DNA from: an uncultured Candidatus Saccharibacteria bacterium
GTDB lineage: Bacteria > Patescibacteriota > Saccharimonadia > Saccharimonadales > Saccharimonadaceae
Reading direction: 5' to 3'
DNA: 64,000 nucleotides
Assembly: GCA_964525315.1 (NCBI GenBank)
Contig: CAZGGJ010000004.1
Span: forward strand, 5,675-69,674
Shown piece after piece: positions 6,457 to 46,360 of the stretch. Position numbers and translations under genes: made by a program. Each line of letters starts with the position of its first letter. Positions within the stretch are counted from its first letter, which is position 1. The notes under the pieces were generated by a model that saw only the letters and a list, made by a program, of their open reading frames with translations, was not told where the DNA came from and searched no databases.

Positions 6457-6480
6457 GTGTAAACTTTATAAAGTTTACAC
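6457..6480 (+). terminator. perfect 24-nt palindrome (GTGTAAACTTTA/TAAAGTTTACAC), possible terminator or insulator before poly-G promoter P1
   Basis: Lies 3 nt after the stop of 5672..6454 and 28 nt before the -35 of P1. It can form a 10-bp stem with a TATA loop. There is no U-run, so intrinsic-terminator function is uncertain. Confidence 0.4.
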
Positions 6481-6507
6481 ACGCCGATACCTACAACTAG
6501 TTTCTCC

Positions 6508-6540
6508 TTGACAACCCCGCATGGGGGGGGGGGGTACCAT
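6508..6540 (+). promoter_or_regulatory. poly-G spacer promoter P1: TTGACA-9nt-G12-TACCAT (spacer 21)
   Basis: TTGACA is at 6508-6513, the G12 run at 6523-6534 and TACCAT at 6535-6540. The conserved leader AGAAGTAACATAACC follows. The start codon lies 38 nt downstream. Confidence 0.65.
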
Positions 6541-6578
6541 AGAAGTAACATAACCACAAGCATCTATGGAGTAGCCAC

Positions 6579-7415
6579 ATGCCACGATTACCACAACCAG
6601 GAGGAGACCAAGGTAACTGGGGCCGAATTCTCAACGACTACCTCTCCCAGGCTCACAAATCAGACGGAACCCTAAAGGACAATATTGTCTCGGCCCCTTC
6701 CATTACTAACAACACCATTACCGAAGACAAGCTTGATACGGCTGTCCGTTCCAAGCTCAATAGCGGTGGTGGTACACAAGGAGCAACTGGACCACAAGGT
6801 CCGCAGGGTGTGCAGGGGCCGGCAGGTATCGCGGGCCAAATGGGTGCGACGGGTCCGCAAGGCCCAGCTGGCGCACAAGGCCCTGCAGGCTCTGTTGGCG
6901 CAACCGGGGCGACCGGTGTTGGTACTCCTGGGGCGACGGGTGCGACAGGTCCACAGGGTAATCAAGGTTCCGCTGGGCCTCAGGGCGCCACTGGTCCTCA
7001 GGGGTCGGCAGGAGTAGTCGGTGCAACTGGGCCAACTGGGACTGCAGGTGCTTCTGGTGCAACTGGTCCTCAAGGGGCCACTGGTCCTGCTGGCGTCGAT
7101 GCCGATGCACTTATTCCTACGAATATACAAACCGGCTCATACACACTTGTTCTTGCCGATGCCGGTAAAGCGATTGACGTCAACTCGGCGTCAGCCACCA
7201 CTATGACTGTTCCGCCAAATGCCAGTGTGGCCTTCCCAGTCGGTACGGTTATAGAAGTGTGTCGTTATGGTACGGGCACTGTTGCCGTCGCCGCCGGGGC
7301 GGGTGTGACGATTCGGTCGCGTGGTTCGTTGATGTCTATCGCGGCTCAGTATAGTTCGGTATCGCTACGCAAGCGGGCGATTGATGAATGGATACTAGTC
7401 GGAGACCTTAGCTAA
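6579..7415 (+). CDS. collagen-like (Gly-X-Y) fibre protein, short form
   Basis: 278-aa ORF with RBS GGAG. N-terminus is [23 protein letters not shown]. Aa 65-172 are about 36 Gly-X-Y triplets. The globular C-terminal domain is shared with the 13722 product. Confidence 0.8.
6771..7094 (+). repeat. Gly-X-Y triplet-repeat coding region
   Basis: GGN-NNN-NNN periodicity ([16 protein letters not shown]...). It generates spurious long ORFs in the other five frames. Confidence 0.85.
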
Positions 7416-7771
7416 TGGCAGCAGTACATCATATTGCACGGCGTGGCCAGATGCAGTATCCTACCATCGCACAGGCTATGGTACAGGCTCATTACCGAGT
7501 GAATCTCGGTAATGTTGCGAGCTCACACCGCTTCCGTGCTCGCTCAACTGACCGCACTGAGCTAGTTATCGTCAACAATTCCGGTGGCGAGCTTCAGCTT
7601 GGCTCGCGTACTACCGATAACCCTGACTATAACTCGCCTTCAACATGGCCTTACACGGTACCAGATGGGAGTGAAGCCGTTATCACTGGCGATACACTGC
7701 AGTGGTACGCGCGCCGAACTGACGGCACCGGAGATATTTTTGTCGATGTGTATGTCAAGGAGATTGCGTAA
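7415..7771 (+). CDS. small conserved protein (118 aa), possible fibre accessory or chaperone
   Basis: The ATG overlaps the upstream stop (TAATG) and its own stop overlaps the next ATG (TAATG). Paralog of 14561..14917 (shared NSPSTWPY.VP.GSE.VIT.DT.QWYARR.DGT.D.FVDVYVKE.A). Confidence 0.6.
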   Translation: MAAVHHIARRGQMQYPTIAQAMVQAHYRVNLGNVASSHRFRARSTDRTELVIVNNSGGELQLGSRTTDNPDYNSPSTWPYTVPDGSEAVITGDTLQWYARRTDGTGDIFVDVYVKEIA

Positions 7772-8982
7772 TGGCCGTTACTGTTCGTTCTGCTCAGACA
7801 CGTAACCCCAGAGTATGGCTCGAAAACGTTACGACTGCAGCAAGTGATTATAAGCCGGTATATATGAGCCATGACCGCACCACCTTGTATGCGGTCAACG
7901 GTGGAGCGAATGACCGAACGCTTCACAAAAGCACCGACGACGGTGCTACCTGGACGGTTATCTTTACTGCTCCGCAGGCAAGCGAGAAGGTGACAGCATG
8001 TCTCGAGCTGTCAGATGGCAGGATGCTCGCGGCAACCTATCTTTTTGCCCAGCGACCACGACTTTATCGGTCAAGCCTTGCCGGCGGTGGCGGTACGTGG
8101 ACGCAAGTGTTTGAAAATAACGGTGTACTCAGTCAGCTCCATCCGTATTGGGGACTAACAGACCGGGGCTTCGATGGTAACGGCCACCTGTGGTTTAGCG
8201 AATATGGCGCACAGACCACTACTTCCGGTAGTCAGTCCGACAAAGCTCGGCGTATTTGGCGCAGTGTCGATGACGGCTCTTCGGCAACACCGATGTTCGA
8301 TATCATAACGTATGCTGAAACGGTGCGCGGTCTCACTGTCCCTGCTCAGACTGGCGGAGTGCATATGCACGCCGTTGCCTACGATAAGTGGGACGACCGA
8401 GTGTGGTTTACGATGGGAGATAACGTCGGTGCTGGTCCAGATATCGTTGTAGGCGGCCAGACAGGGACGAACGTTCAAATTGGTTATACTGATGATAGCT
8501 TTGCGACTGTGAACTGGTTGCCAGCTCCTACGTTCTGGGGAAATACGAAGGAGGCGCTGCAAGTGGTTGGCATCATGCCGCTTGAACATGCAGTTGTATT
8601 CAGCCCAGACGGAGTGGTGAATAGCCCGATTATTTTACCGCGCCGTGGCTACCGGACGTATGGCCCGCTCAAGGCTGGGTCGTATAACGGACTCCGTCAA
8701 GGCTATGGCTCGCTCGGCCAAGGCTTGTTCCAAGCCTGGAATCGTCCTGACCTTCCGGCATTAATGGCGATTGGCATGCCTGTGAGCAACTTCGGCCAGG
8801 CCGCAGCTGGATTATTCGCCGGCCTTGATGGCGGCTTGACGTGGGAGGAGTTGTACCGATTCACGACAGGAGCTCAAATTTCTGTTGGCGGCCTTGTCGG
8901 ACCGACAGTGAACGGCAAGGTTTTGACCAGCTTTAATGACGGTGCCGCCAAGCTGTTTATAGCAGACTTGGTTACGGCTTAG
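7771..8982 (+). CDS. BNR/Asp-box repeat beta-propeller (sialidase-like fold) protein
   Basis: 403-aa ORF. Asp-box motifs: KSTDDGATWT, RSVDDGSS, GLDGGLTWEE. Paralog of 14917..16113. The N-terminus MAVTVRSAQTR resembles a degenerate ARRL tag. Confidence 0.6.
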   Translation: MAVTVRSAQTRNPRVWLENVTTAASDYKPVYMSHDRTTLYAVNGGANDRTLHKSTDDGATWTVIFTAPQASEKVTACLELSDGRMLAATYLFAQRPRLYRSSLAGGGGTWTQVFENNGVLSQLHPYWGLTDRGFDGNGHLWFSEYGAQTTTSGSQSDKARRIWRSVDDGSSATPMFDIITYAETVRGLTVPAQTGGVHMHAVAYDKWDDRVWFTMGDNVGAGPDIVVGGQTGTNVQIGYTDDSFATVNWLPAPTFWGNTKEALQVVGIMPLEHAVVFSPDGVVNSPIILPRRGYRTYGPLKAGSYNGLRQGYGSLGQGLFQAWNRPDLPALMAIGMPVSNFGQAAAGLFAGLDGGLTWEELYRFTTGAQISVGGLVGPTVNGKVLTSFNDGAAKLFIADLVTA

Positions 8983-9001: not shown

Positions 9002-10225
9002 ATGGCAATTTCAGCACGACGATTACAGCGAGTACAGCAGAGACTGGCCTACCAAGGCACCAGTATTGGCCCCCTCGGCTATCGTATCGCCGAAATGTTC
9101 GGTGGTGACGGCAATGGTAGCTGGATTAATACGCCCATGCAGGCGAATACTGCGGTACATCCACTATCAAGTCAAGCCGTGGCTGATATTGTGCTGAATA
9201 TTCGTACACACAAGACGGGGCTACCGAGCCAGGTTGCGTGGCCAAGCTTTAGCTACAATAACTGGTCTGCCAGCCTGAACGTTGTCGACTCCGCCAGTAT
9301 GCCCCTTGTGCCAATTTTGGCGCGCGGTGGCAACGTCACGCAGTCATGGGCCTTTGCTACCCAGGCCATGATGTATGCAGGATTTCCGATACCAGATGGC
9401 CTAGAGCCGACAGATGATGGCGATGGTACTATCTACCTGTATGACCCTGACTGGAAGTGGGCCGGACGCCCAAACGACCCGCAATACCATGGAAGAATTT
9501 GGGAACTATGGGGTGCACGGTCACCAGCGCAGAATGCCGCTGATGGGTTGCCTGCGGTCTGGACGGCACTCCATGGCGGACGCATGACAGGTGTTAACAA
9601 TCGTCTTCACGCGCATATGATTCTACGGAATTCGGGGAGTGATGTGACGACACAAGCCATCCCAACTGCGTACGCACCCAAGGCACCCAACGACACCTCT
9701 AGTAATGCAGGGTACTGGGGGTACGGGCCGGATGGTGTGTACGAAAGCTCCACCTGGCTCGCGAGCGCATCACACCTTGCGATGTCTCATCACATTCTTC
9801 GTATTTCCGATATGGTCAACGGTGTTATTAAGCATCCGATGGGATTCTCGTTGTATCCTATGGTTCCTGGCTCCGAAGGTAGTAAGCCCCATGTTTGGCC
9901 AGCGACTGGTTACGACAGTGCGTCGCGCGAATGGCTTCGCCACGGCAACCGGCTGCGTCTGCCGGCTGGCTACACGGCCACCCCGCCACCGAGTATCCCA
10001 GCATCGTGGCATGCTCTATGGCATATGTTCGTAAACTGTTTCCGTGATTACGGCATCATCATGGTTGATACGACAGGCTCATCCTTTGGTATGCGTGGGG
10101 AGCCGGGGCTTGGTCCATACTTACCGTCTGGATGGGATAGTAAAATGTTTTTACAATCTCTCCCTTGGGAGGATATGCAAATGTTAGCCGTCGGTAATGA
10201 CAACGATTTTTATCCGCCTACGTAA
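9002..10225 (+). CDS. ARRL-tagged protein of unknown function, paralog of 45146..46360
   Basis: 407-aa ORF. N-terminus is MAISARRLQRVQQ. It shows long collinear similarity with the 45146 product (GPLGYRI.EMFGGDGNGSWINTPM, DGTI.LYDPDW.W.GRP.DPQY.GR..ELWGA.SP, VWPATGYD.ASR.W..HGNR.RLPA.YTAT). Confidence 0.55.
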   Translation: MAISARRLQRVQQRLAYQGTSIGPLGYRIAEMFGGDGNGSWINTPMQANTAVHPLSSQAVADIVLNIRTHKTGLPSQVAWPSFSYNNWSASLNVVDSASMPLVPILARGGNVTQSWAFATQAMMYAGFPIPDGLEPTDDGDGTIYLYDPDWKWAGRPNDPQYHGRIWELWGARSPAQNAADGLPAVWTALHGGRMTGVNNRLHAHMILRNSGSDVTTQAIPTAYAPKAPNDTSSNAGYWGYGPDGVYESSTWLASASHLAMSHHILRISDMVNGVIKHPMGFSLYPMVPGSEGSKPHVWPATGYDSASREWLRHGNRLRLPAGYTATPPPSIPASWHALWHMFVNCFRDYGIIMVDTTGSSFGMRGEPGLGPYLPSGWDSKMFLQSLPWEDMQMLAVGNDNDFYPPT

Positions 10226-10245: not shown

Positions 10246-10277
10246 TTGACAAGTTCACATGGGGGGGGGGGTATCAT
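10246..10277 (+). promoter_or_regulatory. poly-G spacer promoter P2: TTGACA-9nt-G11-TATCAT (spacer 20)
   Basis: TTGACA is at 10246-10251, the G11 run at 10261-10271 and TATCAT at 10272-10277. The leader is nearly identical to that of P1 (AACATAACCACAAGCATCTATGGAGTA). Confidence 0.65.
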
Positions 10278-10320: not shown

Positions 10321-12270
10321 ATGCCACGATTACCACACCCAGGCGGAGATAAAGGCAATTGGGGGACCATCCTCAACGACTATCTCTCCGTCGCTCACGA
10401 AGCTGACGGCAGCCTCAAGCCAGGTTCTGTAGCAGAATCCACGCTTGATGCTGCTGCTCGGGCAAAGCTTAATACTACGGGCGGTGCGATTGGCGCCACT
10501 GGGCCTCAAGGCTCCTCCGGTCCAGCTGGGCCCGCCGGCACTCCAGGCGTGGCAGGTCCGACGGGTCCAACTGGACCGGCAGGAGCAACGGGACTACAAG
10601 GCGCGATTGGCCCTGCCGGTACTCCGGGTACGAATGGGAGTGATGGCAATGCCGGCGCTACCGGTCCGCAGGGCACTCCAGGGACACAGGGTGCCACTGG
10701 CCCGCAAGGCTCCGTAGGCACAGCTGGGCCTCAAGGTGCTACCGGCCCCGCTGGTCAAGATGGCGCTGACGGTACGAGCGTTACCATCACTGGCAGTGTG
10801 GCTAATGCTGCCGCTCTTCCCACGGGCCTCACGCCAGGAGATGCTGGTACGGGGTATATCACTGAAGATAATGGGCATCTCCATGTCTGGAGTGGTACGG
10901 CCTGGACGGATGCCGGAGAGATACGAGGCCCTGCCGGTGCCACCGGCCCGCAAGGTGCACCGGGTGCTCCCGGAACGGCTGGTTCTGATGGCAACCAAGG
11001 AGCTACTGGGCCTCAGGGACCCACTGGACCAGCGGGTACGAGCGGCACCACTGGTGCGACTGGCCCCGCTGGGTCGCCGGGTGTGACAGGGGCAACAGGG
11101 CCAAGCGGTTCGGCAGGACTTGCTGGTGCAACAGGCCCGATAGGCCCGCAAGGTGCGACTGGCCCAACTACCGATGCCACGACTTCCTCAAAAGGAGTTG
11201 TTCGGCTTGCCGGCGACCTGGCTGGCACGGCAGACACGCCGACAGTGCCTGGCCTTGCCGCCAAGGCGAATGCCGTGGATACGATTCACAACCAGTCGGC
11301 CACTGCTCAAGCCGCCAATTACTGGGTGCAGAGTGCCGACCCGGCGAATGTCTCGGCGGTAGTGCAGGCTGCAACGAGCCAATCGGCCAATATATTTGAA
11401 GTTCGCGATGCTGGCGGCCAAGTGCCGTTTGCCGTACTGAATAACGGCGACGTCACCATCTCGCGCCGTACGCTCACCCTCGGTACGACCACGACGAATG
11501 CCTCGCGTTTCGTGCTCCAAGGTAATACGCAGACCAACGCTACCAACCAGTATGGGTTTCGCAGCGAGCCGATATTTCTGCCGACGGGTGCGGTGAGTAA
11601 TGTTTATAGCTTGGTGAACCGCGCAGCGCTTGCTAGTAGCTCCCAAAATGTGGGTCAGCTGTGGGGTGCTGTCGTTGGTGTGCAGACACTGCCTAGCTAC
11701 ACAGGCACGCTGGCAAATGCCACCGTACTGGGTGTTTCAGCGCCCGATATGCAGGGCAGCAAGGCTAGTGTGGTATACGGCATATCTATCAGCGGCATAG
11801 CCGCAAATGGTGGCAACACTTCAGGCGAGATTAGCAATACCCAGCTGTATATTGATTCGAGTACGGCTGTCGCAGGCGCTGGCGGCACTGTACGTAATAT
11901 CGGAATTCTTGCTATCATGCCAAGCGGAACTGGCGGTGGTACTACGGTTAATAACGGAGTTATCATCTCCGATACGGCCAATACGCCCAACGGCTCATGG
12001 TCGTTCTATAATAGCAGTGTTGCCAATAGCCACATCAGTGCCAATCTGCTGGTGGGAACCACCTCTAACCCTGCCGGACACAAAGTAAATGTCAACGGTA
12101 GCGTCAATGCCACCAATGTCCTCGCCGGCGGTGTCGACCTCGGCTGGGTATCACCGCCAGCCTCAGCTACTGCTGCTGGTACTGCCGGGCAGAAGGCGTA
12201 TGACGCCAACTATCTATACGTCTGTACGGCCACTAATACATGGCGTCGTGTAGCGCTGGCGGCATGGTGA
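10321..12270 (+). CDS. collagen-like fibre protein, long form with large C-terminal head region
   Basis: 649-aa ORF with the conserved [16 protein letters not shown]-terminus. Two Gly-X-Y blocks are split by the insert GTSVTITGSVANAAALPTGLTPGDAG.GYITEDNGHLHVWSG. The C-terminal motif GTAGQKAYDANYLYVCTATNTWRRVALAAW is of a kind I associate with phage fibre-like proteins. Confidence 0.8.
   Translation: MPRLPHPGGDKGNWGTILNDYLSVAHEADGSLKPGSVAESTLDAAARAKLNTTGGAIGATGPQGSSGPAGPAGTPGVAGPTGPTGPAGATGLQGAIGPAGTPGTNGSDGNAGATGPQGTPGTQGATGPQGSVGTAGPQGATGPAGQDGADGTSVTITGSVANAAALPTGLTPGDAGTGYITEDNGHLHVWSGTAWTDAGEIRGPAGATGPQGAPGAPGTAGSDGNQGATGPQGPTGPAGTSGTTGATGPAGSPGVTGATGPSGSAGLAGATGPIGPQGATGPTTDATTSSKGVVRLAGDLAGTADTPTVPGLAAKANAVDTIHNQSATAQAANYWVQSADPANVSAVVQAATSQSANIFEVRDAGGQVPFAVLNNGDVTISRRTLTLGTTTTNASRFVLQGNTQTNATNQYGFRSEPIFLPTGAVSNVYSLVNRAALASSSQNVGQLWGAVVGVQTLPSYTGTLANATVLGVSAPDMQGSKASVVYGISISGIAANGGNTSGEISNTQLYIDSSTAVAGAGGTVRNIGILAIMPSGTGGGTTVNNGVIISDTANTPNGSWSFYNSSVANSHISANLLVGTTSNPAGHKVNVNGSVNATNVLAGGVDLGWVSPPASATAAGTAGQKAYDANYLYVCTATNTWRRVALAAW
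10483..11166 (+). repeat. Gly-X-Y triplet-repeat coding region (two blocks, about 10483-10773 and 10927-11166)
   Basis: Triplet periodicity is visible in the translated sequence. Antisense and out-of-frame ORFs in this span are artefacts. Confidence 0.85.
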
Positions 12271-12317: not shown

Positions 12318-13568
12318 ATGGGTAGTCCAGGAGTAGGCGGGTCACTTAGCGCAGCCAGCGACGTCGCGTTTAGCAACCCTGCGACCGGGCAGGTGATTCA
12401 GCGCAGCGGTGCGTATTGGGTAAATGCAGCCCCGGCCGGGGAAGGTACTAATCCATCGAGTTGGATATACCTTGACCAGATGACCGGTGCGAATGATGAT
12501 GCCAAGCTAACGGCTGCGATAGATTTGCAGAAAAACACTGCCGGCATGCCACCAATTGTTCTCGGCGCGCGCAATCATTCGTTCAACCAAACACGTCAAC
12601 TCTATTCCGGCCTCAAGCTTATCGGTCAGTCGACTGGGCCAAAGAACCTCGAGCAAAGCCCCAATTTTGTGACGTCGCGTATTACCCTGGGGAGCAGCGT
12701 ATCGTCGGGCGCGTCCAGCTGGTGGGTGACACCGGGCGGCAACCTGTTTGACATCTATATGGGTGATTTTGCTGTGCAAGGCAATGCTGGGTCGAGTGTG
12801 CACCAGTTTATCGATGTGACGAGCGGCTCGCTCTACGCTTGTCAATTTCATAGTCTGGCCTTCAACTTCATGCGTAGTGTGTTTGGCCGCAAAGACCGCA
12901 AGTGCCTCATGACGCAAGTAGTATTTTCGGGACATTGGACGGCAAATAATCTGTGGGATACCCAGTTTTTCCTTGGCGGTGCAGATTGTCAACTGTGGGT
13001 AGGCGGCTACATCAATATCGGGCCATCATCCTCATCATTACAGACGGGTACGTATGCTGACAACGATTATCAGATAGTCTTCGATAATCTTACCAAGACA
13101 GATATTGGCTATATCTTCACTTCTTCGTTAAATGGATGGAGGGGTCTCAAAGTGACGGGAAACAGCGGGCATGGACTGCGATTTTTCGGTGGGACGTATG
13201 AGGGCTACAAATCTTCGAATGACAACTTAGCTGCCCCAGGGACAGTTATCCGTCTCGAGGGCGGCTCAGGGGCATTCTTCGGCCCAAGCGTGGGGCAAGC
13301 GATGCAGAGTCCTGACGGGGCCGAAGGTGGGCCAATACACATGACCGGTGGTGAATGGTCGTTTTATTCACCGAATTTTTATCGTTCTCCGATGGCAGAT
13401 AGTCAGCCGTGTATTTACCATACGGGCGGTAGGCTCCTCGTGATGGGCGCGACACGGCACGAGGGTGAAGCATGGACGACACGACCGCGCTACCAGACTA
13501 CTCGGAGTGGCCCGAACTCATCAGAAGACTCGTTTTATTGTCCTGATATGTCGATGGTGAGTGTATAA
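12318..13568 (+). CDS. MGSPGVGGSLSAASDVAFS-family protein, paralog of 1836..3050
   Basis: 416-aa ORF with RBS AAGGAGG at 12302-12308. The first about 60 nt are nearly identical at DNA level to the start of 1836. Confidence 0.6.
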   Translation: MGSPGVGGSLSAASDVAFSNPATGQVIQRSGAYWVNAAPAGEGTNPSSWIYLDQMTGANDDAKLTAAIDLQKNTAGMPPIVLGARNHSFNQTRQLYSGLKLIGQSTGPKNLEQSPNFVTSRITLGSSVSSGASSWWVTPGGNLFDIYMGDFAVQGNAGSSVHQFIDVTSGSLYACQFHSLAFNFMRSVFGRKDRKCLMTQVVFSGHWTANNLWDTQFFLGGADCQLWVGGYINIGPSSSSLQTGTYADNDYQIVFDNLTKTDIGYIFTSSLNGWRGLKVTGNSGHGLRFFGGTYEGYKSSNDNLAAPGTVIRLEGGSGAFFGPSVGQAMQSPDGAEGGPIHMTGGEWSFYSPNFYRSPMADSQPCIYHTGGRLLVMGATRHEGEAWTTRPRYQTTRSGPNSSEDSFYCPDMSMVSV

Positions 13569-13629: not shown

Positions 13630-13659
13630 TTGACCTTTCCGCTGGGGGGGGGGTATCAT
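13630..13659 (+). promoter_or_regulatory. poly-G spacer promoter P3: TTGACC-8nt-G10-TATCAT (spacer 18)
   Basis: TTGACC is at 13630-13635, the G10 run at 13644-13653 and TATCAT at 13654-13659. The leader AAAAGTAACCATTAGC resembles that of P6. Confidence 0.65.
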
Positions 13660-13721: not shown

Positions 13722-14561
13722 ATGCCGCGCCTACCCCACCCAGGAGGAGACAAAGGTAACTGGGGAGATATCCTCAACGACTACCTCTCCCAAGCTCATA
13801 ACCCAGACGGTACTCTCAAAGATAACGCCGTTTCTACGCCTGCCATTACCAACAACAGTATTAGTGAAGGCAAGCTCGATGCGGCCGTCCGTTCTAAGCT
13901 CAACTCTGGCGGTGGTGTCCAAGGTGCAACTGGCCCGCAGGGTCCTCAAGGGCCACAAGGTCAACAAGGCGCTGCTGGCACGCCTGGGCAAGCTGGTGCC
14001 ACAGGCCCACAAGGACCCTCCGGAGCACCTGGTAGTCAAGGACTTGCTGGTGCAACTGGTGCGCAAGGAGCTACCGGTCCCACAGGTAGTCAGGGTAATC
14101 CGGGTACAGCCGGTCCTACCGGGGCTACCGGCCCTCAGGGTACTGCTGGTCCCGCCGGTGCGACTGGCCCCAAGGGCGACCAAGGTGACGCGGGTGCTAC
14201 CGGGCCTGCCGGAGCAGCTGGCGCCACTGGGCCAGCCGGCACTGACGCCGAGCCGCTGATTCCTACCAACTTGCAGTCCGGCTCATATACCCTTGTGCTT
14301 GCCGACGCAGGCAAAGCTATCGATGTTGACTCGGCATCAGCCACCACAGTAACTGTCCCGCCAAACGCAAGCGTGGCCTTCCCAGTCGGTACGGTCATAG
14401 AGGTATGCCGCTACGGTACTGGTACGGTTGCTATTGCAGCCGGTGCAGGTGTGACGCTCCGCTCGCGCGATTCGCTTACTTCTATCGCTGTGCAGTACAG
14501 CTCCGTCTCTTTACGCAAGCGAGCAACTGATGAGTGGATAGTAGTCGGAGACCTGAGCTAA
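13722..14561 (+). CDS. collagen-like fibre protein, short form (paralog of 6579..7415)
   Basis: 279-aa ORF with RBS AAGGAG. Same N- and C-terminal domains as the 6579 product, with Gly-X-Y triplets at aa 65-173. Confidence 0.8.
13914..14240 (+). repeat. Gly-X-Y triplet-repeat coding region
   Basis: [22 protein letters not shown]... periodicity. Confidence 0.85.
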
Positions 14562-38075: not shown

Positions 38076-38106
38076 TTGACAATCCCGCACGGGGGGGGGG
38101 TACCAT
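38076..38106 (+). promoter_or_regulatory. poly-G spacer promoter P7: TTGACA-9nt-G10-TACCAT (spacer 19)
   Basis: TTGACA is at 38076-38081, the G10 run at 38091-38100 and TACCAT at 38101-38106. A second TTGACG lies 15 nt upstream (38062-38067). Confidence 0.65.
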
Positions 38107-39603: not shown

Positions 39604-41283
39604 ATGAGTATAACAGCACGGCGTTTGAGTAGAGCGACACAGGAAGTTACGAGTGGTTGGCCGCAGCTTTCAGCGCAGCGGGGTGCATTGACGATTGGTA
39701 CGGCGAGTTACACAATTCCTGGCAGTGCTGTGTATGTCGACTCGGCAAGTGGCTCGAACAGCAATAGCGGCACACTCAATTCACCATACCAAACAGTCGC
39801 CTATGCCACGTCACAAGTTGCCGCGAACGGTACGGTTGTCTGCCGTGCTGGCGTGTATCATGAACAGTTCGAGCATACGCCTAGCGACAATGCCTGTACG
39901 GTGATGAATTATCCTGGCGAGGAAGTCTGGTTCGACGGCTCGGTCGTTGTTACGAGTTGGACGCAAAATGGCTCGACATGGGTGCATAACGGCATTCCAA
40001 CGAAATTCAATCATACCACTAGTGCCGGCTGGGCAGATTATCCGAATTTTCTGCAGGGCGATATGTACGCCGGCCTGTCCGACCAGGTATTTTATGATGG
40101 GGCTCGTTTGACGCAAATCGCCGATGGTGCAACACCCAGTGCTGGACAATTCTCGGTAAATTACACCGCAAATACTATCACCATAGGCTCTAACCCGAAT
40201 GGTCATGAGGTGCGCGTCTCTGACCTGCGCTACCTAGTGATTGCTTCGCAGCGCATCTCATGGAAGGGAATTGGTGTGCGCCGCTACGCTCCCGACAAGA
40301 CCAGTGATGTCGGCGCCCCATTTTACTACGGTGGCAGTTCAGCTGGCTCCAGCTTTGAAAATGTCGTCGTCAAGCAGTCATCAATTGCCGGCTGGGCACT
40401 GAACAAGCCAAATATGACGCTGCGTTACTGCACTGCCGAAGACAATATGCATACTGGCATCGGCGGTTCGTACTGCGATGGCCTTGTGGTGGATTCGTGT
40501 GCCATGCAGAACAACAACGTCGGCAAGTTCAAAGCACAACCAACCACAGCAGGCATAAAAATCACCGACTGCCTTGGCGTGACAGTCAGTAATTGTTACG
40601 TCGTGGACAATACGGGCGGTATGGGCATATGGTTTGACGTGTCGTGTGTCAAAGTAAATGTGCTGCACAATTACATTAAAGGCGCACACTACGACGGTAT
40701 CACGATGGAGCTAAGTGCGGGCGGCTATATCAGCGGGGTGCAGTACCGAAGCATTGTAGCCGGCAACTACATAGATGGTGCGCAGTTCGGTATCGGTTGT
40801 CTGGATAGCAGCTACACCGATATCTACAACAATACGTTTATCAACTGCACCTCGGCTGATATTATGATGCAGCGTGATGACCGTCCGCTCAATACCGGCA
40901 ACAAAACACGCACGCTTGCCGAATGTTCCTGGGATACGACCTATAACACGAATGTTAACAATATTTTAGGGCCGTGTACCATTCCGATTCGTGTCTTTGA
41001 TAGCAACAATAACCGCAGCGCCGATGTCATGTACAACGAAGTTCGCAACAATACCATCACGAAACTATCGGGTGGGATTATCCAATGGGGCAATGCCAGC
41101 AATAGCTACACGACCTACAATACGCCAGCAGCATTTCAGGCTGCCGTGCCAAGTTTGTCGAGTGGTAATATTCAATCGGCCACTATTGACCACACCCAGG
41201 CGTTTGGCGTGCCAGCTCACGTAGCAAATGCGCTCGGGGTTGCATCTAATACGAAGCGTATGGGGGCGTGGGTTAATTCGTAA
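39604..41283 (+). CDS. beta-helix (DUF1565/pectate-lyase-like) protein with ARRL tag
   Basis: Start chosen at MSITARRLSRA (ATG 39604); the track start 39520 overlaps the upstream gene. Motifs: GTASYTIPGSAVYVDSASGSNSNSGTLNSPYQTV, TVVCRAGVYHEQ, NYPGEEVWFDGS, WKGIGVRRYAP. Confidence 0.7.
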   Translation: MSITARRLSRATQEVTSGWPQLSAQRGALTIGTASYTIPGSAVYVDSASGSNSNSGTLNSPYQTVAYATSQVAANGTVVCRAGVYHEQFEHTPSDNACTVMNYPGEEVWFDGSVVVTSWTQNGSTWVHNGIPTKFNHTTSAGWADYPNFLQGDMYAGLSDQVFYDGARLTQIADGATPSAGQFSVNYTANTITIGSNPNGHEVRVSDLRYLVIASQRISWKGIGVRRYAPDKTSDVGAPFYYGGSSAGSSFENVVVKQSSIAGWALNKPNMTLRYCTAEDNMHTGIGGSYCDGLVVDSCAMQNNNVGKFKAQPTTAGIKITDCLGVTVSNCYVVDNTGGMGIWFDVSCVKVNVLHNYIKGAHYDGITMELSAGGYISGVQYRSIVAGNYIDGAQFGIGCLDSSYTDIYNNTFINCTSADIMMQRDDRPLNTGNKTRTLAECSWDTTYNTNVNNILGPCTIPIRVFDSNNNRSADVMYNEVRNNTITKLSGGIIQWGNASNSYTTYNTPAAFQAAVPSLSSGNIQSATIDHTQAFGVPAHVANALGVASNTKRMGAWVNS

Positions 41284-41314
41284 TGCATGACGAGGCAAGA
41301 GGGACTGAAGCAAT

Positions 41315-42616
41315 ATGAGTAGATTTGCACGCCGACTACAGTATGCAGCCTCTTCCGTGCGGCGCTATCCGGGCTATTTGCCGCCGTTTTTGACACGTCC
41401 AACCGGAACTGATTATGTACGCTATGAAGACTTGGTCCAGGGAGGTGATGCGGTCACAGTGACGACAGTGGGCACGCAACCTGTCTATCAATTCGGCGCT
41501 GGCGTATTCCAGACTATCATTGAACGGTGTCCGGCAAACAAATGGATGACATTTCCGGCGGGCGTCTTTGAAATTAATTCTCCAGGCTGGACGATTGGCG
41601 ACAACGCCGCCTGTCAGTGGCCCAAGACGTCCTACGGCGCTATCGGTAATTGTCCACCCGGAACTGGGTGGGATGACCTCGCGCCCGACAACCAGCGGAC
41701 GGTATTCCGGGTGAAGGCAAATACTGCCCCGAGCAAAAACGTGGCCGGCGCATGGTTCAGGATAGGATATAGTGGCTCGGTAAAGCAGTCGTGGGCCAAT
41801 ATTCATTTTGAAGGCACCGACCAAGGCATGCAAGTATCGGGCGATACGGGCAACAATAGTGGTCCCGGCAATGACGGCACCTCACGGCGTTTGTTTACAA
41901 ATGCCTTTTTCTGGAATGTGGCTGATAATTCCAATGCTCGCGATATCTTGTCAACAGGGAATTTCGGCAATAACGGAGCTCCTCCCGGTGAAACATTCGG
42001 TTTTCAGTGGTATCACTCTACTAATCCCGTACTATGTCGCATTTATGTGGATGGCCGCCGCATGGCGGGCGGGCCTATTTATTCGGCGGCTGGTATTACC
42101 TTTGGCAACACGCTCGGCGGCATCCTGACCGATAGCTGGACACATCACAATGGGCAGGCAGGTGTGGTTTTCTTCCAAACGGCAAATTGCGTCAGTTATG
42201 GCTGCCGGCTAGGTGACCCAAGCGACCACACGACGAATCATGTCAATGGCAAGGCGAATGGCGATTGGCTCAATCATGAGCGGAGTACTGGCAATGTCCA
42301 TACTGACATGAACCTCCATGTCTACAGCGTCGGCAAAGCACAGGGCGAGCATGTTTCGCATTCCAATGATAGCTGGACGCTGTCTCGCTCCGGACAGGAT
42401 ATCCCAGTTGATAATGGTACGGTGAAGTTTATCAACCAGACACACTCGCAGATATTATTTGGCGGTTCTGGGTATCCACTGACTATCGCGACATGGGTGC
42501 CGTATTGGACAGGCAATACCATGCAATCCAGTAATAGGCCTATTATCGTTGCCGCTGACGGCATAACGCCAGTGGCCGCAAAGTGGAACTTCGGAGGGAC
42601 ATGGCTAGATGTGTAA
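41315..42616 (+). CDS. ARRL-tagged protein of unknown function, paralog of 42638..43813
   Basis: 433-aa ORF. N-terminus is MSRFARRLQYA. Shared blocks: YVRYEDL.Q.GD, FP.GVF, G.NGAPPGETFG, VDGRR....YSAAGIT.G, HHNG.A..VF. Confidence 0.55.
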   Translation: MSRFARRLQYAASSVRRYPGYLPPFLTRPTGTDYVRYEDLVQGGDAVTVTTVGTQPVYQFGAGVFQTIIERCPANKWMTFPAGVFEINSPGWTIGDNAACQWPKTSYGAIGNCPPGTGWDDLAPDNQRTVFRVKANTAPSKNVAGAWFRIGYSGSVKQSWANIHFEGTDQGMQVSGDTGNNSGPGNDGTSRRLFTNAFFWNVADNSNARDILSTGNFGNNGAPPGETFGFQWYHSTNPVLCRIYVDGRRMAGGPIYSAAGITFGNTLGGILTDSWTHHNGQAGVVFFQTANCVSYGCRLGDPSDHTTNHVNGKANGDWLNHERSTGNVHTDMNLHVYSVGKAQGEHVSHSNDSWTLSRSGQDIPVDNGTVKFINQTHSQILFGGSGYPLTIATWVPYWTGNTMQSSNRPIIVAADGITPVAAKWNFGGTWLDV

Positions 42617-42637
42617 AGACGTAAGGAGCAGTAATAT

Positions 42638-43813
42638 ATGAGTATCGCCGCACGACGACTAATGAGGGCGCCAGCCGTTACGAGCGACCGTCCGACAGGT
42701 CCGGGGTATGTCCGCTATGAAGATTTGTACCAGCCTGGCGATTCAGTAGGCGCGGCCCTCAATCGCCTCGCGACACCAGCCATTGTGACCTTCCCAGAAG
42801 GGGTGTTCCTGCTCAATGGGTTTCAGTATTATGGCGGTGCCATTGACTGCAAAAAAACAATGGTGCGCGGTATCATTGGCTCTGGCTCGGGAACATTGTT
42901 CGACGAAAGCCGTGGTACGATTTTCAAGATGGTGCCAAATAGCTCGTCGTTCGTCAAAGGTACGTCACCAGAAACACCTACCCAGGCGCAGGGCGGCACG
43001 ACCCAGGTATGGGTAATTCGCTGCGTCGGTGCCGAGGGGGATGTACGGTTCGAAAACTTCCAAATAGTTGGCACCGAACAAGGGCACAACTACAACGGCC
43101 TCTATGCCTACCATGTTCAGGGAAGTACGACGATAAAAAATGTCAAAGTATCGGGAGTGGCTGGCGATAACGGCGCTCCTCCGGGTGAAACATTTGGCAT
43201 CTCGGCGTATCAGGGCAATATGGGCACCACAGTTATTGAAAACTGCGAAGTCGACGGCAGGCGTAGCGGTGCAGCTGGTTCCTCGTGGTATAGCGCAGCA
43301 GGGATTACCAGTGGGCAATCTATTGGTGCGACCATTCGTGGGTGCCATTCTCACCATAACGGTGCTGCGGCGTTTGTGTTCTATCGCGCGTTTGACGGAG
43401 TATTCGAAAATAACATTTGCGGCACGACCGACCCGGCAGCCCACGCCACGACCAATTTGAGGGGCTGGGGCGTTAATCAGGAAGAAACGGCCGGGATTGT
43501 GCACAAAAACTGCACCTATCGCCACGGTGCGGTCAACCAAGGCGTGCATATTTCACACTCTAACACCAATCGGTCGTTCCAGTATACCGGCTGGCCATCG
43601 CGTTCGGTGGTTGATGGGAGCCTTAAGGTCGTCAACCCGACATTCACAGATATATGGGGTAATAATTATTTTTACATTCAGTCATGGCTCACTGGTGTAG
43701 ATGGCACGAGCAATAACGATTCGATGGTGACGCCGCCGCTCGTCACACTGACTGACGGTGTGACTCACCTGCCATACAAATGGGCGCATGGCCCGACGCA
43801 GACTGTAACGTAA
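42638..43813 (+). CDS. ARRL-tagged protein of unknown function, paralog of 41315..42616
   Basis: 391-aa ORF with RBS AAGGAG. N-terminus is MSIAARRLMRA. Confidence 0.55.
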   Translation: MSIAARRLMRAPAVTSDRPTGPGYVRYEDLYQPGDSVGAALNRLATPAIVTFPEGVFLLNGFQYYGGAIDCKKTMVRGIIGSGSGTLFDESRGTIFKMVPNSSSFVKGTSPETPTQAQGGTTQVWVIRCVGAEGDVRFENFQIVGTEQGHNYNGLYAYHVQGSTTIKNVKVSGVAGDNGAPPGETFGISAYQGNMGTTVIENCEVDGRRSGAAGSSWYSAAGITSGQSIGATIRGCHSHHNGAAAFVFYRAFDGVFENNICGTTDPAAHATTNLRGWGVNQEETAGIVHKNCTYRHGAVNQGVHISHSNTNRSFQYTGWPSRSVVDGSLKVVNPTFTDIWGNNYFYIQSWLTGVDGTSNNDSMVTPPLVTLTDGVTHLPYKWAHGPTQTVT

Positions 43814-43829
43814 TAAAGAGGAAGAATAT

Positions 43830-45122
43830 ATGAGCATAGCAGCACGACGATTCCAGCGAGGTATCTCGAATAATACCGAAAACAACGTTCCCGAACGTGG
43901 GCCGGTCAGTTTCGCCAACTTGGCCGCAGCCAGGGCGGCGCTGAATACACCTTCGGATGCCAATTACGTCATGTGGAATTCCTCTTGGCCGGTCAATCGC
44001 GACCTAGAAGACGTCTTTGCGACCGAACTAGCCGACAACGATATTCTGGTGCTGCCGGAGCGTCCGCAGCCCTACGTTGTTGATTCGAGTGAAGGTTTTC
44101 GGGCTGCTGGCGTAGGTTGGGTACAGGGTCGTAACGGCTTGCTGCCTATCGTCAATCGCTACAAGAACATTCGCAATGCCCGCACCTGGTTCGCTATGGC
44201 CAGGGCACGGCGCGGTATCTTGGGGCTAGGTCCAAACGCCGTGATAGAAATGAGTCAATCATCGTGGACGATGGAGCCGCAAATCGAAGACCAAGGCAGT
44301 GTGCAAGAGTCCGACGGCTGGACGTCGATAGGACGATATTACTACGATACGGCTGGTGTCAAGAGGTCCGAGCTGGTCGGCTGTCAAGAGAAAATTATCG
44401 AATCAGCACATGCGACCCCGTATTTTGGTAACTTTACAATGCGTGCGCACGCGCTTGGTGGCATTGCGTTTTCAGGGCTAACAACCAACGGCAATCCAAC
44501 GATGACAACCTTTGAGCGGCTGGACCTATCGGGCTCGTGGTATGGATTCCAAGGGATTCCGAATGGTGAGGCCGGTGGGATTGGCGTAGGCCGCGGGCAA
44601 TACTTGGTGAGCCGTTGTGTTTTGGGTACGCGCGATAGCAATGGCAATCGTTTTGGAACGTCACCGGTTATGATTAACAGCTCGACTGGCGGCCTCATCG
44701 AGCATACTGATGCGTGTGAAACGAATCATGGCATGCTGACGATTTGGAACTCCAGCGGTACGCACACGCTCAATAACGTCAACTTGCGCTTTAATTCGGG
44801 TCCAGGCATGAATCTGGAGAAAAACCAAGCTGGCATGGTGCTCAATATGAACGGCGGCTCAATCTGGTCGGACTATTATGGCAACGGCGGTAAATCGCCT
44901 AAGCCAGCTGACCAAGGTACTAAAGGCAGGCTGCATATAGGGATATTTTCTGAAGTTGGGTCGGCCAAAATTACCCTGCGCGGCGTCGACCTCGATACAG
45001 GCCCAACGGCGGGCGCACTGAACTGTCAATCGTACGGAGCGACACAGCAACTAGCCAGTGACATCAAGTGTTATGACGCGAATAATAATCCCATACCAGT
45101 GAAGGCGTACGGACTCAATTAG
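43830..45122 (+). CDS. ARRL-tagged protein of unknown function, distantly related to the two preceding genes
   Basis: 430-aa ORF with RBS GAGGAAG. N-terminus is MSIAARRFQRG. Contains GIPNGEAGGIGVGRG and NHGMLTIWNS blocks. Confidence 0.5.
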   Translation: MSIAARRFQRGISNNTENNVPERGPVSFANLAAARAALNTPSDANYVMWNSSWPVNRDLEDVFATELADNDILVLPERPQPYVVDSSEGFRAAGVGWVQGRNGLLPIVNRYKNIRNARTWFAMARARRGILGLGPNAVIEMSQSSWTMEPQIEDQGSVQESDGWTSIGRYYYDTAGVKRSELVGCQEKIIESAHATPYFGNFTMRAHALGGIAFSGLTTNGNPTMTTFERLDLSGSWYGFQGIPNGEAGGIGVGRGQYLVSRCVLGTRDSNGNRFGTSPVMINSSTGGLIEHTDACETNHGMLTIWNSSGTHTLNNVNLRFNSGPGMNLEKNQAGMVLNMNGGSIWSDYYGNGGKSPKPADQGTKGRLHIGIFSEVGSAKITLRGVDLDTGPTAGALNCQSYGATQQLASDIKCYDANNNPIPVKAYGLN

Positions 45123-45129
45123 GTAGCCA

Positions 45130-45138
45130 TGATACAAT
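45130..45138 (+). promoter_or_regulatory. extended -10 (TGATACAAT) 7 nt upstream of ATG 45146; candidate leaderless promoter
   Basis: TG is at 45130-45131 and TACAAT at 45133-45138. No Shine-Dalgarno sequence. Confidence 0.4.
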
Positions 45139-45145
45139 CATAAGC

Positions 45146-46360
45146 ATGAGCATCGCAGCACGACGGCTACAGCGAGCACGGCTGGCATCGCAGTCGTACC
45201 AAGGTACGAGCAACGGCCCCTTGGGCTATCGCATCAGTGAAATGTTCGGCGGTGATGGCAATGGTTCGTGGATTAATACCCCGATGCCAGCCAACACAAG
45301 CGTCCACGCGGATTCAGCCACGGCAGTTGCTGACCTCTGTTATAACATCTACGAAAAGGCCACAGGTACGAATGTCGCTGCTTGGCCGATTATCAATGCT
45401 GGCAACTATTGTGCCACTATCAATGTTATCCCGCACGGCACGCCGTTGGTAAAAGTATGGTCAAGCGAACTTCCGCAGCACTGGAATGACCCCAGTAAGT
45501 GGTCGGGCCATGCCATGCAGTATGACGGCTTTCCGATACCGGAGGGCCTAGAGCCAACCAACGACTCGGACGGCACCATCTTCCTCTATGACCCCGACTG
45601 GGAGTGGCCTGGCCGTCCAGGCGACCCGCAGTACAAGGGGCGGGTATATGAGCTATGGGGCGCACAGTCACCAGAACAAAACGTAGCCAATGGACTTCCG
45701 GCACGCTGGACGGCGAAGTATCCGGGGCGACTATCCGGCGTGAACAATCGTCTCACTGGGCATCCTGTCAACCGGACTACCGGTGATGCGCTGAGTACCG
45801 CCATGCCAACCTTTACGGCGCCCAAAGCACCCAATGACACCTCGGCCAATACTGGCTATGTAGGATATGGCCGGGATGGTGTCGCCGAACACTCTGGTAT
45901 GATGGCGAGTGCGTCGCACATCCCGATGAGCCACACGCAGATTCGAATATCTGATGTAGTGAAGGGTGTCATTAATCACCCGCTGGGGTTTGCGCTTTTC
46001 GGCTATGATGGGTCGCCAAAAGGCTACGTGTGGCCGGCAACCGGGTATGATGGCGCCAGTCGACCGTGGATGAAGCATGGCAATCGGTTCCGGCTCCCAG
46101 CCAGCTATACTGCGACCTATCCGGCAAATATGCCTGTCGCGTGGCGTCCTTGGTTCGATATGTTTATCCAGTGTTTCAAGGACTACGGCGTGATGCTAGT
46201 AGATACCACAGGCAACTCATTTGCGCTTCGTGGTGAGCCAGGAGTACAGAATTATTATCCTGCCGGTTTCAATAGCAATACGTTCATCAAGTACTTACCG
46301 TGGGCCGATATGGAAATGCTCGTTGTAGGGAATGATAATGAGTTCTACCCTTCCGCATAG
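45146..46360 (+). CDS. ARRL-tagged protein, paralog of 9002..10225
   Basis: 404-aa ORF. N-terminus is MSIAARRLQRARLA. Collinear similarity with the 9002 product over the full length. Confidence 0.55.
   Translation: MSIAARRLQRARLASQSYQGTSNGPLGYRISEMFGGDGNGSWINTPMPANTSVHADSATAVADLCYNIYEKATGTNVAAWPIINAGNYCATINVIPHGTPLVKVWSSELPQHWNDPSKWSGHAMQYDGFPIPEGLEPTNDSDGTIFLYDPDWEWPGRPGDPQYKGRVYELWGAQSPEQNVANGLPARWTAKYPGRLSGVNNRLTGHPVNRTTGDALSTAMPTFTAPKAPNDTSANTGYVGYGRDGVAEHSGMMASASHIPMSHTQIRISDVVKGVINHPLGFALFGYDGSPKGYVWPATGYDGASRPWMKHGNRFRLPASYTATYPANMPVAWRPWFDMFIQCFKDYGVMLVDTTGNSFALRGEPGVQNYYPAGFNSNTFIKYLPWADMEMLVVGNDNEFYPSA

Follow-up and report, generated by a model that had tools for sequence, protein, structure and literature searches.

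What do seven long guanine runs do when they stand in a row on one strand of a bacterial chromosome, each at the head of a set of genes? The question is raised by a 64-kb stretch of DNA from an uncultured Candidatus Saccharibacteria bacterium (contig CAZGGJ010000004.1, positions 5,675 to 69,674), referred to here as the window, which is a Saccharibacteria (TM7) chromosome. Between positions 6457 and 46360 it holds an island of seven gene units (U1 to U7) with a poly-G tract (P1 to P7) before each. The units encode collagen-like fibres, lectin-like proteins with ConA/LamG-type folds, beta-helix proteins and predicted enzymes, among which a short N-terminal tag recurs. Saccharibacteria live as obligate epibionts on Actinobacteria and have a minimal metabolism. 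Classic promoter switches based on homopolymers are those of Neisseria (porA/opc), Mycoplasma (vlp) and Treponema (tpr). We consider it probable that slippage in promoter spacers diversifies a phage-derived arsenal for host binding and envelope degradation in the chromosome of this epibiont.

Promoter architecture of the poly-G tracts

The window contains exactly seven runs of at least nine G, against 0.67 expected from dinucleotide shuffles, and none of 100 shuffles attained its 19 overlapping G9 matches. Other G or C runs of seven or more nucleotides are absent from both strands of the whole window. All seven tracts are intergenic and lie on the plus strand. The preliminary description had divided the island into seven same-strand units headed by poly-G, and this division is confirmed, with one conserved promoter at each tract. 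Alignment of the seven regions gave a common element, TTGAC(A)-N8/9-Gn-TAYCATA, in which the columns TTGAC, G10 and TA-CATA are invariant. A partly conserved leader, CATAACCACAAGCATCTATGGAGTA, lies downstream of TAYCATA; an Rfam search of the window gave no family match, so the leader is not a known RNA element.

By its sequence, the poly-G element is a promoter of the sigma-70 type, in which a homopolymer takes up half of the spacer. The tract sits between the -35 and -10 hexamers, so the number of G residues sets the spacer length, which is 21, 20, 18, 19, 19, 20 and 19 nt from P1 to P7. The proposal that the poly-G sites are promoters agrees with this architecture, and the tract lengths differ between otherwise identical sequences. 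Sigma-70 promoter activity drops steeply outside a spacer of 16–18 nt, and a generic sigma-70 scan accepted P3 alone among the seven switch promoters. Promoter-like sites without a G tract in related Saccharibacteria loci mostly have a spacer of 17 nt, and several carry a TGn extended -10. The switch promoters combine a perfect or near-perfect -35 with a weaker -10 (TAYCAT) and no TGn. With such a suboptimal -10, their activity should depend heavily on correct spacing from the -35.

The promoter pattern was scanned in 185,579 species genomes, which gave 98 loci (L001 to L098). The closest are contigs of 'Candidatus Saccharibacteria bacterium labscale reactor_MAG32' (MAG32) at 86–94% nucleotide identity, and several Saccharibacteria metagenome-assembled genomes (MAGs) hold two to five poly-G promoters each. 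Across the 98 genome loci, no compensation between the number of G and the non-G part of the spacer was evident by eye. A single-metagenome scan with a clade-specific pattern found nine loci and one further genome with at least six such promoters; it contained no duplicates of the same locus and gave no information on polymorphism.

Tract-length variation between near-identical assemblies

Tract lengths could be compared because identical proteins occur on many public contigs. Look-ups with exact proteins (the ABC ATPase, P0001 and the protein starting at 38177) found no record, and cluster members were used in their place to reach related contigs. All lengths were taken from assembled consensus sequences, not from reads. 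The loci occur in the runs SRR14800548/49, SRR18682538-41, SRR31678696, SRR33128029/30, SRR22048721, SRR36343561/62 and SRR28981374/84.

Three sets of assemblies were compared. With flanks identical to those of the window, the U4 promoter has G10 in three assemblies and G11 in one more and in the window itself; by contig, the U4-orthologous promoter carries G10 in L126, L127, L128 and the MAG32 contig L020, and G11 in L135. The window and L126 are 99.91% identical over 4426 bp, with three mismatches and a single gap, which is the U4 tract (G11 against G10). A U7-type promoter of sister strains, present in six assemblies from different runs, has G9, G9, G10, G10, G11 and G13. These contigs align over 3.3–4.4 kb each with 0–4 mismatches, the tract is their sole indel, and its lengths, together with a non-G part of 8 nt, give spacers of 17, 18, 19 and 21 nt. 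At the third locus, P0002 (MAG32 and Logan assemblies), the tract is G10, G10 and G11 with 0–1 mismatch over 5.7–8.7 kb. In each of the three sets the tract is the only indel across 1.9–8.7 kb. The window also differs from its MAG32 orthologues at U7 (G10 against G9) and at U4 (G11 against G10). A homologous locus without a tract served as control: seven contigs at 99.2–99.5% identity showed 0–1 gaps in 4–10 kb and zero gaps in the 165-nt region upstream of the gene. A range of 9–13 at a single site with no other indel has the appearance of a contingency locus. To our knowledge, runs of at least nine G are hypermutable in every bacterium tested.

The tracts could instead be a fixed structural element of the promoter or operator, such as a rigid spacer or a regulator site, under conventional regulation, with length differences that arise as sequencing and assembly noise. 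Illumina chemistry and assemblers cope poorly with G10–13, and many contigs end at the tract: among those reaching the three promoters, 9 of 23 stop in or beside it. The tract and the -10 box are also highly conserved across species, and the palindrome upstream of U1, which is unique, could act as an operator. Against this explanation, lengths of 9 to 13 occur at one locus in independent samples, where flanks of 3–4 kb have 0–4 mismatches and no other indel, and two runs of the same study, SRR14800548 and SRR14800549, give G9 and G13. In addition, the non-G spacer diverges freely and the run stays uninterrupted, which is a signature of selection for mutability, and the hypermutability of such runs points in the same direction. 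A fixed element is quite unlikely on this evidence, and the contig breaks hint at length heterogeneity within samples.

The public contigs (Logan and ENA assemblies) that end at the tract are L129–L134, L143, L144 and L109, and a tenth, L142, begins 7 nt upstream of it. At L044 (7765–7801), a Saccharibacteria promoter carries a G17 tract with a spacer of 25, far beyond any functional spacing.

Cassette exchange between strains

In comparison with related strains, the units behave as cassettes that can be separated: homology starts at the -35 and the upstream neighbour differs. In the MAG32 comparisons of U4 and U7, homology begins exactly at the TTGAC hexamer; upstream of it the DNA is unrelated, as another unit stands there. 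In these orthologues the non-G part of the spacer has diverged, the sequence from the tract onwards is conserved and the run is uninterrupted. The MAG32 genome has its GH5 gene joined directly to the U4 promoter and its GDPD gene joined directly to the U7 promoter. The third collagen fibre and the GDPD protein of U3 (the U3b cassette) are missing from the MAG32 contig L020 and abut the U7 promoter in L085. By sequence comparison this pair appears to be a cassette of its own behind a promoter without G.

In sister strains, a DUF4143 ATPase gene (98.9% identical) directly precedes the U7-type unit, and the beta-helix gene at 39604 is missing; the site of the ATPase and GH16 genes (30698–32772) thus appears as a rearrangement hotspot. 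One strain junction lies at the tag codons and joins window position 39626 to 43829. Units and genes are present or absent among strains that are 92–99% identical in their common segments, and the gene content of U7 varies between strains. Similar units occur at other chromosomal sites, beside alaS or grpE.

Six of the seven first genes are putative recognition modules, as first described: collagen fibres in U1, U2, U3 and U5 and tandem ConA/LamG proteins in U4 and U7. This order is a tendency and not a rule, since relatives place the lectin-like gene after the collagen gene, and in L091 and L053 a tagged enzyme-like gene or an MGSPGVGG-family gene stands first behind poly-G. In more distant Saccharibacteria, a collagen and lectin-like pair lies behind an ordinary TATAAT promoter. 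The idea that each switch controls one set of binder plus enzymes has only partial support; it is limited by the single terminator of the island, by the internal promoter without G in U3 and by the loss of the binder-first order in relatives.

Similarity to phage receptor-binding proteins

Gene content was assigned by Pfam, NCBIfam, PHROG and PDB sequence searches, AlphaFold and Foldseek; proteins are named by the first coordinate of their genes. All five fibres open with the head MPRLPxPGGDxGNWGxILNDYL and carry 17–37 Gly-X-Y triplets per run. Over their last ~95–125 residues, fibres 6579 and 13722 share 53–66% identity with the C-terminal ends of minor tail proteins of Gordonia phages (53–60% for the tip of 6579 alone). 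Gordonia phages account for 223 of the 245 phage records that match the fibre tips. In the two phages examined, the gene for the matching protein belongs to the minor-tail block and stands two genes upstream of the lysin gene. The PHROG minor-tail family phrog_8780 matched the non-collagen fibre C-terminus at 3.6e-29, and Pfam matches among the island proteins include Phage_tail_C and Gp53-like_C. The GDPD protein has 70 phage matches, from Microbacterium (56), Clavibacter (5), Streptomyces (4), Gordonia (3) and Actinomyces (1) phages and, as the lone match outside actinophages, an unnamed record ('Bacteriophage sp.') of faecal origin. The fibre head matches Streptomyces phage collagen proteins weakly, and the propeller-like protein 7771 shares 27% identity with a tail protein of an Alcaligenes phage.

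Other searches were less informative. In tblastn against phages, the C-terminus of the long fibre gave only a 26-residue tip motif common to diverse phages, and beta-helix 39604, MGSPGVGG protein 12318 and GH5 16145 gave nothing. PHROGs had no match for the beta-helix proteins, 7415, 7771, 9002, 21239, 36109, 41315 or 43830. PDB sequence searches were empty or insignificant for 9002, 21239, 7771, 41315, 34052 and 34519, and for fibre 6579 they matched the collagen repeats alone. A viral-contig search with the fibre protein returned mainly collagen-repeat matches and was uninformative, and NCBIfam added nothing useful beyond Pfam.

The term lectin-like, used in the preliminary description for the first proteins of U4 and U7, holds at the fold level. 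One protein of this type was modelled by AlphaFold (predicted local distance difference test score, pLDDT, 87.8; predicted TM score, pTM, 0.81) as all-beta with two ConA/LamG-type jelly-roll domains. Its Foldseek neighbours include the trypanosomal sialidase lectin domain, laminin LG, galectins and TtX122, as well as phage LamG/minor-tail proteins and carbohydrate-binding modules (best E 5e-14). Folds of the ConA type may serve catalysis as well as binding. The model of 9002 (pLDDT 80.6, pTM 0.80) has no Foldseek neighbour in the PDB (best E = 2), and the fold of this family may be new. The 9002/45146 family is narrow: 5.8 billion proteins hold about 20 clusters of it, nearly all of which seem to be Saccharibacteria-like.

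Besides the five fibres, 15 genes open with an 11-residue tag, MS(I/R)(A/F)ARRLQRA, which sits on proteins of unrelated folds and is also present in the related loci L030, L085 and L091. In the model of 9002, the tag forms an N-terminal segment of low confidence (pLDDT <50), in which a short helix is predicted at residues 6–13. A Tat signal, suggested by ARR, was ruled out, as no hydrophobic h-region follows the tag. A recombination box acting at the DNA level only was also ruled out, because the codons vary synonymously and the tag is kept as protein; the codons nonetheless coincide with one recombination junction. A signal peptide or membrane anchor was found in 3 of the 33 island proteins.

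These properties would also be expected of the tail-fibre or tailspike module of a prophage, a phage remnant or a tailocin-like particle, in which the proteins would equip the particle instead of the cell and the switches would vary the host range of the particle. The strong phage homology of the fibre tips and the GDPD protein, the two Pfam tail domains, the missing signal peptides, as in virion parts assembled in the cytoplasm, and the short conserved N-terminal peptides, which resemble adaptor or docking sequences, all agree with this. However, no capsid, portal, terminase, tail tube, tape measure, baseplate, integrase or lysis protein was matched by Pfam or PHROG among the window proteins tested. 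The flanks are chromosomal (ABC transporter, pilin and Pam-like pilus genes), similar units stand at other chromosomal sites by alaS or grpE, and the promoter pattern had no match among the 2.9 million viral contigs of IMG/VR. A particle module is therefore unlikely. The island seems, from its sequence, to be cellular, yet made of phage receptor-binding parts.

Another possibility is a polysaccharide-utilisation, cellulosome-like set for feeding on glycans outside the cell, with the collagen and lectin-like proteins as scaffolds. Pfam matches to GH5, GH16 and dockerin, CE2_N in a neighbouring gene, and matches to beta-helix, NosD and DUF1565 families would suit such a set. A cohesin should then accompany the dockerin, and proteins 34052 and 34519 had been called cohesin-like, but neither gave a match to one in Pfam, NCBIfam or PDB sequence searches. 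Secretion signals are missing from almost all of the proteins, the fibre tips and the GDPD protein are specifically related to actinophage proteins, and Saccharibacteria are obligate epibionts of minimal metabolism. Moreover, phase-variable promoters typify surface-interaction genes and not catabolic regulons. A feeding set is very unlikely in view of these points.

Proposed mechanism

According to the spacer-slippage model favoured here, slipped-strand mispairing in replication would add or remove G residues in the 3' half of the -35/-10 spacer. The spacer would thereby move (18–21 nt in the window genome and 17–21 nt in relatives, against about 17 nt in ordinary Saccharibacteria promoters), and each promoter would shift stochastically and reversibly among strong, weak and silent states. 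By the sigma-70 rule, one or two slippage events would suffice to bring each promoter to an optimal or a silent state. By the same rule, U3 (18 nt) would be the most active unit in the window genome, and U1, U2 and U6 (20–21 nt) would be silent. The cargo under each switch would be drawn from collagen fibres with exchangeable tips, ConA/LamG modules, depolymerase-like beta-helix proteins, GH5, GH16 and GDPD. Combinatorial on/off switching would give a clonal population with mixed repertoires for binding and degrading host surfaces, a form of bet-hedging over host strains or envelope types. Since there is only one terminator, an active upstream promoter would probably drive downstream cassettes as well, so that control would be nested and not per unit; read-through is likely across units that lack a terminator. 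The conserved promoter and leader and the tag codons would double as junctions for the exchange of cassettes or single genes between strains. An effect on transcription, reversibility, surface display and a role in host recognition are what we infer from these data.

Several points weigh against this model. Homopolymer errors of short-read assembly could make some of the length variation technical. The lengths taken as on or off come entirely from the sigma-70 spacing rule, and with spacers of 18–21 nt most switches would be weak or off here, or else the optimum would be shifted by the geometry of the G tract. As 30 of the 33 island proteins have no signal peptide or transmembrane segment and no export route is known for them, their surface display is something we infer. 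Phage matches of the beta-helix proteins, of GH5 and of the MGSPGVGG family are weak or absent, and the PHROG signal of the fibres owes much to low-complexity collagen repeats. Finally, the ordinary promoter before the collagen and lectin-like pair elsewhere suggests that switching is not essential to the function of the proteins.

A broader proposal is offered tentatively. The island may be a chromosomal 'host-range organ' of the epibiont, derived in part from tail genes of phages of the epibiont's own actinobacterial hosts (Gordonia and other Actinobacteria). In such an organ, dozens of fibre and depolymerase modules without Sec signals would be directed by the tag MSIAARRLQRA or the head MPRLPxPGGDxGNWG to an export or docking route, possibly via the Pam pilus; the seven or more serial switches would randomise the modules displayed by each cell, a phage-like bet-hedging of host range in a cellular parasite, and the phage-shared tip would predict the host.

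Gene content and local signals of the island

The features of the island are listed in Table 1. Gaps between genes within units range from -23 to +47 nt, except for one 107-nt gap that holds the internal promoter of U3, and gaps between units from 95 to 391 nt. The preliminary gene content stands for the five collagen proteins, GH5, GDPD, five Pfam beta-helix proteins in U4 and U7, and the dockerin protein. It is unconfirmed for the cohesins and weak for the BNR propellers: 7771 and 14917 each have one Asp-box, where such a propeller should have several (S-x-D-x-G-x-T-W), and no Pfam match, and an NCBIfam glycosylhydrolase match (0.0018) was weak. The ATPase and GH16 genes between U4 and U5 interrupt the same-strand array and had been absent from the earlier unit list.

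Table 1. Promoters, genes and other signals of the poly-G island and its upstream extension (window coordinates).
Feature	Position	Strand	Details
Upstream tagged beta-helix proteins	719-1771, 3051-5642, 5672-6454	+	
Upstream MGSPGVGG protein	1836-3050	+	
Palindrome GTGTAAACTTTATAAAGTTTACAC	6457-6480	+	24 nt, perfect
P1 switch promoter	6508-6540	+	TTGACA, 9 nt, G12 (tract 6523-6534), TACCAT; spacer 21
U1 collagen fibre	6579-7415	+	Pfam Collagen 1.3e-14
U1 small protein	7415-7771	+	
U1 propeller-like protein	7771-8982	+	one Asp-box
U1 tagged protein, unassigned fold	9002-10225	+	
P2 switch promoter	10246-10277	+	TTGACA, 9 nt, G11 (tract 10261-10271), TATCAT; spacer 20
U2 long collagen fibre	10321-12270	+	with DUF5907
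U2 MGSPGVGG-family protein	12318-13568	+	weak pectate-lyase-like match
P3 switch promoter	13630-13659	+	TTGACC, 8 nt, G10 (tract 13644-13653), TATCAT; spacer 18
U3a collagen fibre	13722-14561	+	
U3a small protein	~14561-14917	+	
U3a propeller-like protein	14917-16113	+	one Asp-box
U3a tagged GH5	16145-17377	+	Pfam
Putative internal G-less promoter in U3	17385-17420	+	TTGACA-17-TACACT at 17385-17413; TATAAT at 17415-17420
U3b collagen fibre	17485-18471	+	
U3b GDPD protein	18475-20847	+	790 aa; Pfam
P4 switch promoter	21155-21185	+	TTGACG, 8 nt, G11 (tract 21169-21179), TATCAT; spacer 19
U4 tandem ConA/LamG-fold protein	21239-22663	+	
U4 tagged beta-helix	22686-24680	+	
U4 tagged beta-helix with PKD	24688-27540	+	
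U4 tagged beta-helix with PKD	27584-30538	+	
DUF4143/AAA_14 ATPase	30698-31846	+	in no unit
Tagged GH16	31915-32772	-	in no unit
P5 switch promoter	32941-32971	+	TTGACA, 9 nt, G10 (tract 32956-32965), TACCAT; spacer 19
U5 collagen fibre	33021-34031	+	Phage_tail_C tip
U5 tagged protein	34052-34495	+	147 aa
U5 double-transmembrane protein	34519-35319	+	
U5 signal-peptide dockerin protein	35297-35962	+	PF00404 at 8.7e-8
Terminator-like hairpin	35984-36014	+	11-bp GC-rich stem
P6 switch promoter	36053-36084	+	TTGACA, 9 nt, G11 (tract 36068-36078), TACCAT; spacer 20
U6 first protein	36109/36127-36858	+	
U6 N-terminally anchored beta-helix-like protein	36872-38059	+	
P7 switch promoter	38076-38106	+	TTGACA, 9 nt, G10 (tract 38091-38100), TACCAT; spacer 19
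U7 ConA/LamG-fold protein	38177-39595	+	
U7 tagged beta-helix	39604-41283	+	
U7 tagged protein	41315-42616	+	
U7 tagged beta-helix protein	42638-43813	+	
U7 tagged protein	43830-45122	+	
U7 tagged protein	45146-46360	+	paralogue of 9002
Tagged genes (starts)	719, 3051, 5672, 9002, 16145, 22686, 24688, 27584, 32772(-), 34052, 39604, 41315, 42638, 43830, 45146		

Three non-coding signals that had been pointed out besides the tracts were found again. The perfect palindrome before U1 was confirmed, and the window has no second copy of it even with 3 mismatches allowed. Gene 5672-6454 ends 2 nt before it, and the -35 of U1 follows 27 nt after it; the RNA hairpin of the palindrome (-11.5 kcal/mol, z = -3.7) has no U tail, and the palindrome may be either a weak AU-rich hairpin or an operator. 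The strong terminator between U5 and U6 corresponds to a hairpin of -27 kcal/mol (z = -3.7), the sole strong intrinsic-terminator-like hairpin in the island. Between U1 and U2 and between U6 and U7, only 20 and 16 nt separate the stop codon from the next -35, and no hairpin was found there. The internal promoter of U3 is plausible and has no G tract.

The first three genes of U3 (13722, 14561 and 14917) are a duplicate of the U1 trio at 66–80% amino-acid identity. Proteins 9002 and 45146 are paralogues, as are 12318 and 1836 (36% identity) and the first genes of U4 and U7 (41% identity), and a beta-helix paralogue family comprises 3051, 22686, 24688, 27584 and 39604. The first protein of U6 shares 55% identity with a C-terminal extension that lectin-like homologues of 683–687 aa carry in other genomes (P0009), and it appears from this alignment to be a detached module of the lectin-like family. 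The second U6 protein was rightly described as an anchored beta-helix; a transmembrane segment lies at its N-terminus, and it is 31% identical to beta-helix protein 5672. Gene starts were corrected to 24688 (not 24646) and 39604 (not 39520), and the true starts of two others are probably 14561 and 36127.

Genes of the same families as in the island, and the N-terminal tag, also occur upstream of 6457 as far as the edge of the window (719–6454), so seven units are a lower bound. No promoter of these upstream genes was identified in the window, and it may lie outside. At the other end, a canonical strong promoter, TTGACG-18-TATAAT (46381–46410, with TGG just upstream), drives the gene for a protein that has a signal peptide, a DUF5122 beta-propeller and CE2_N (46460–48529). 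This promoter and its gene mark the 3' end of the set of leaderless tagged genes.

Neighbouring genes and spread of the promoter type

A plus-strand cluster of signal-peptide proteins at 49529–58035 contains proteins that end in motifs such as ...YTTKINYIAAPQY. Two WxLIP_PGBD-like proteins (53579–54646 and 57019–58035) and a PKD/Ig protein (54692–55627) each have a C-terminal transmembrane helix. A type IV pilin-like protein with an N_methyl motif (57903–58841) adjoins this pilus cluster, and an ABC transporter lies beyond it on the minus strand (58844–60810). The cluster fits the published description of the Pam pilus operon (pilins, the membrane-anchored chaperones PamC/D, and PamR), and the poly-G island thus directly adjoins Pam-like pilus genes. 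The Pam pilus operon was described in the Gordonia parasite Ca. Mycosynbacter amalyticus, and according to a 2026 preprint a 'tail fibre-like protein' co-localises with it across genomes of the Candidate Phyla Radiation (CPR) (bioRxiv 10.64898/2026.03.03.709456). A relative attacks Gordonia by means of surface filaments (PMC11880426 and a preprint).

The design TTGACA-N-G8-14-TATCATA is not confined to Saccharibacteria: many genomes of uncultured Clostridia, Christensenellales, Erysipelotrichales, Mollicutes and other CPR members carry it, and spacers across the scan loci peak at 18–19 nt. In the loci checked outside Saccharibacteria, the promoter lies mostly upstream of large proteins with signal-peptide-like N-termini. 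Going by these loci, the design may represent widespread, undescribed phase variation in Gram-positive-type bacteria. At L022, L035, L039 and L070, from MAGs of Gammaproteobacteria, Uhrbacteria and other Patescibacteria, a poly-G promoter stands 7–23 nt before homologues of ~340 aa. These start with ...LENLCxAWxEFxxGKRxKxDV, which resembles the N-terminus of a reverse transcriptase, and could be phase-variable reverse transcriptase or defence genes.

Comparison with known systems

The switches of porA, opc and fetA in Neisseria meningitidis also have poly-G or poly-C in the -35/-10 spacer, with graded on/off expression of surface proteins and tracts of about 9–14 nt that differ by one between isolates. 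The Neisseria genes are single and dispersed in a Gram-negative pathogen, whereas the island has seven tandem switches on one strand before multi-gene cassettes in a CPR epibiont, with cargo that resembles phage receptor-binding proteins (RBPs) and lacks signal peptides. The vlp cluster of Mycoplasma hyorhinis is a paralogous cluster in a small-genome, host-dependent bacterium, with a homopolymer in each promoter, combinatorial expression and a strain-variable number of genes, all as seen or proposed in the island. However, each vlp unit is one lipoprotein gene, with a signal peptide and poly-A, while the island has poly-G before operons of 2–6 genes for fibres and glycan-active enzymes. Poly-G length upstream of the transcription start modulates the promoter activity of the paralogous subfamily II tpr genes of the uncultivable, genome-reduced Treponema pallidum, in which the position of the tract relative to the -35 and -10 differs, as does the cargo of outer-membrane proteins. 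The capsule loci of Bacteroides fragilis are seven or eight multi-gene surface operons with independent stochastic promoter switches and mixed populations, as is proposed for the island, but they switch by recombinase-mediated DNA inversion and not by repeat slippage.

Among phages, those with multiple RBPs (Klebsiella phage PhiK64-1 and Escherichia phage CBA120) have alternative fibres or depolymerase spikes with conserved N-terminal adaptors and exchangeable C-termini, which the island resembles. The invertible fibre genes of Mu and P1 and the diversity-generating retroelement of Bordetella phage are likewise stochastic host-range switches. Unlike the multi-RBP phages, the island is chromosomal, has no virion genes nearby and would switch at promoters. 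The fibre tips resemble minor tail proteins of Gordonia phages (e.g. Jabberwocky gp38), whereas the N-terminal and shaft parts are unrelated. The mechanism is thus known, and the novelty lies in the tandem array of several operons, in the phage-like cargo and in the occurrence in the CPR.

Significance for Saccharibacteria

Full-text literature searches found no description of phase variation or poly-G switches in Saccharibacteria or Patescibacteria, and collagen-like or tail-fibre-like genes of these groups are undiscussed in the searched texts except for one sentence in the Pam preprint. As far as this literature shows, the island would be the first phase-variation system described in the CPR. 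The promoter design in uncultured Clostridia and other CPR genomes suggests a far wider, overlooked use of such switches in Gram-positive-type bacteria. The tracts fragment metagenome assemblies and can be used as markers.

How CPR epibionts recognise, attach to and breach their hosts, and how host range varies between close strains, is poorly understood. The island gives concrete candidates for these steps: fibres with Gordonia-phage tips, a predicted phosphodiesterase of the teichoic-acid type and depolymerase-like beta-helix proteins. Poly-G slippage is a testable route to rapid, heritable variation in their expression, and the tips shared with phages could help to predict the hosts of uncultured TM7. 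If this reading is true, a cell would be using phage receptor-binding modules for its own parasitic lifestyle.

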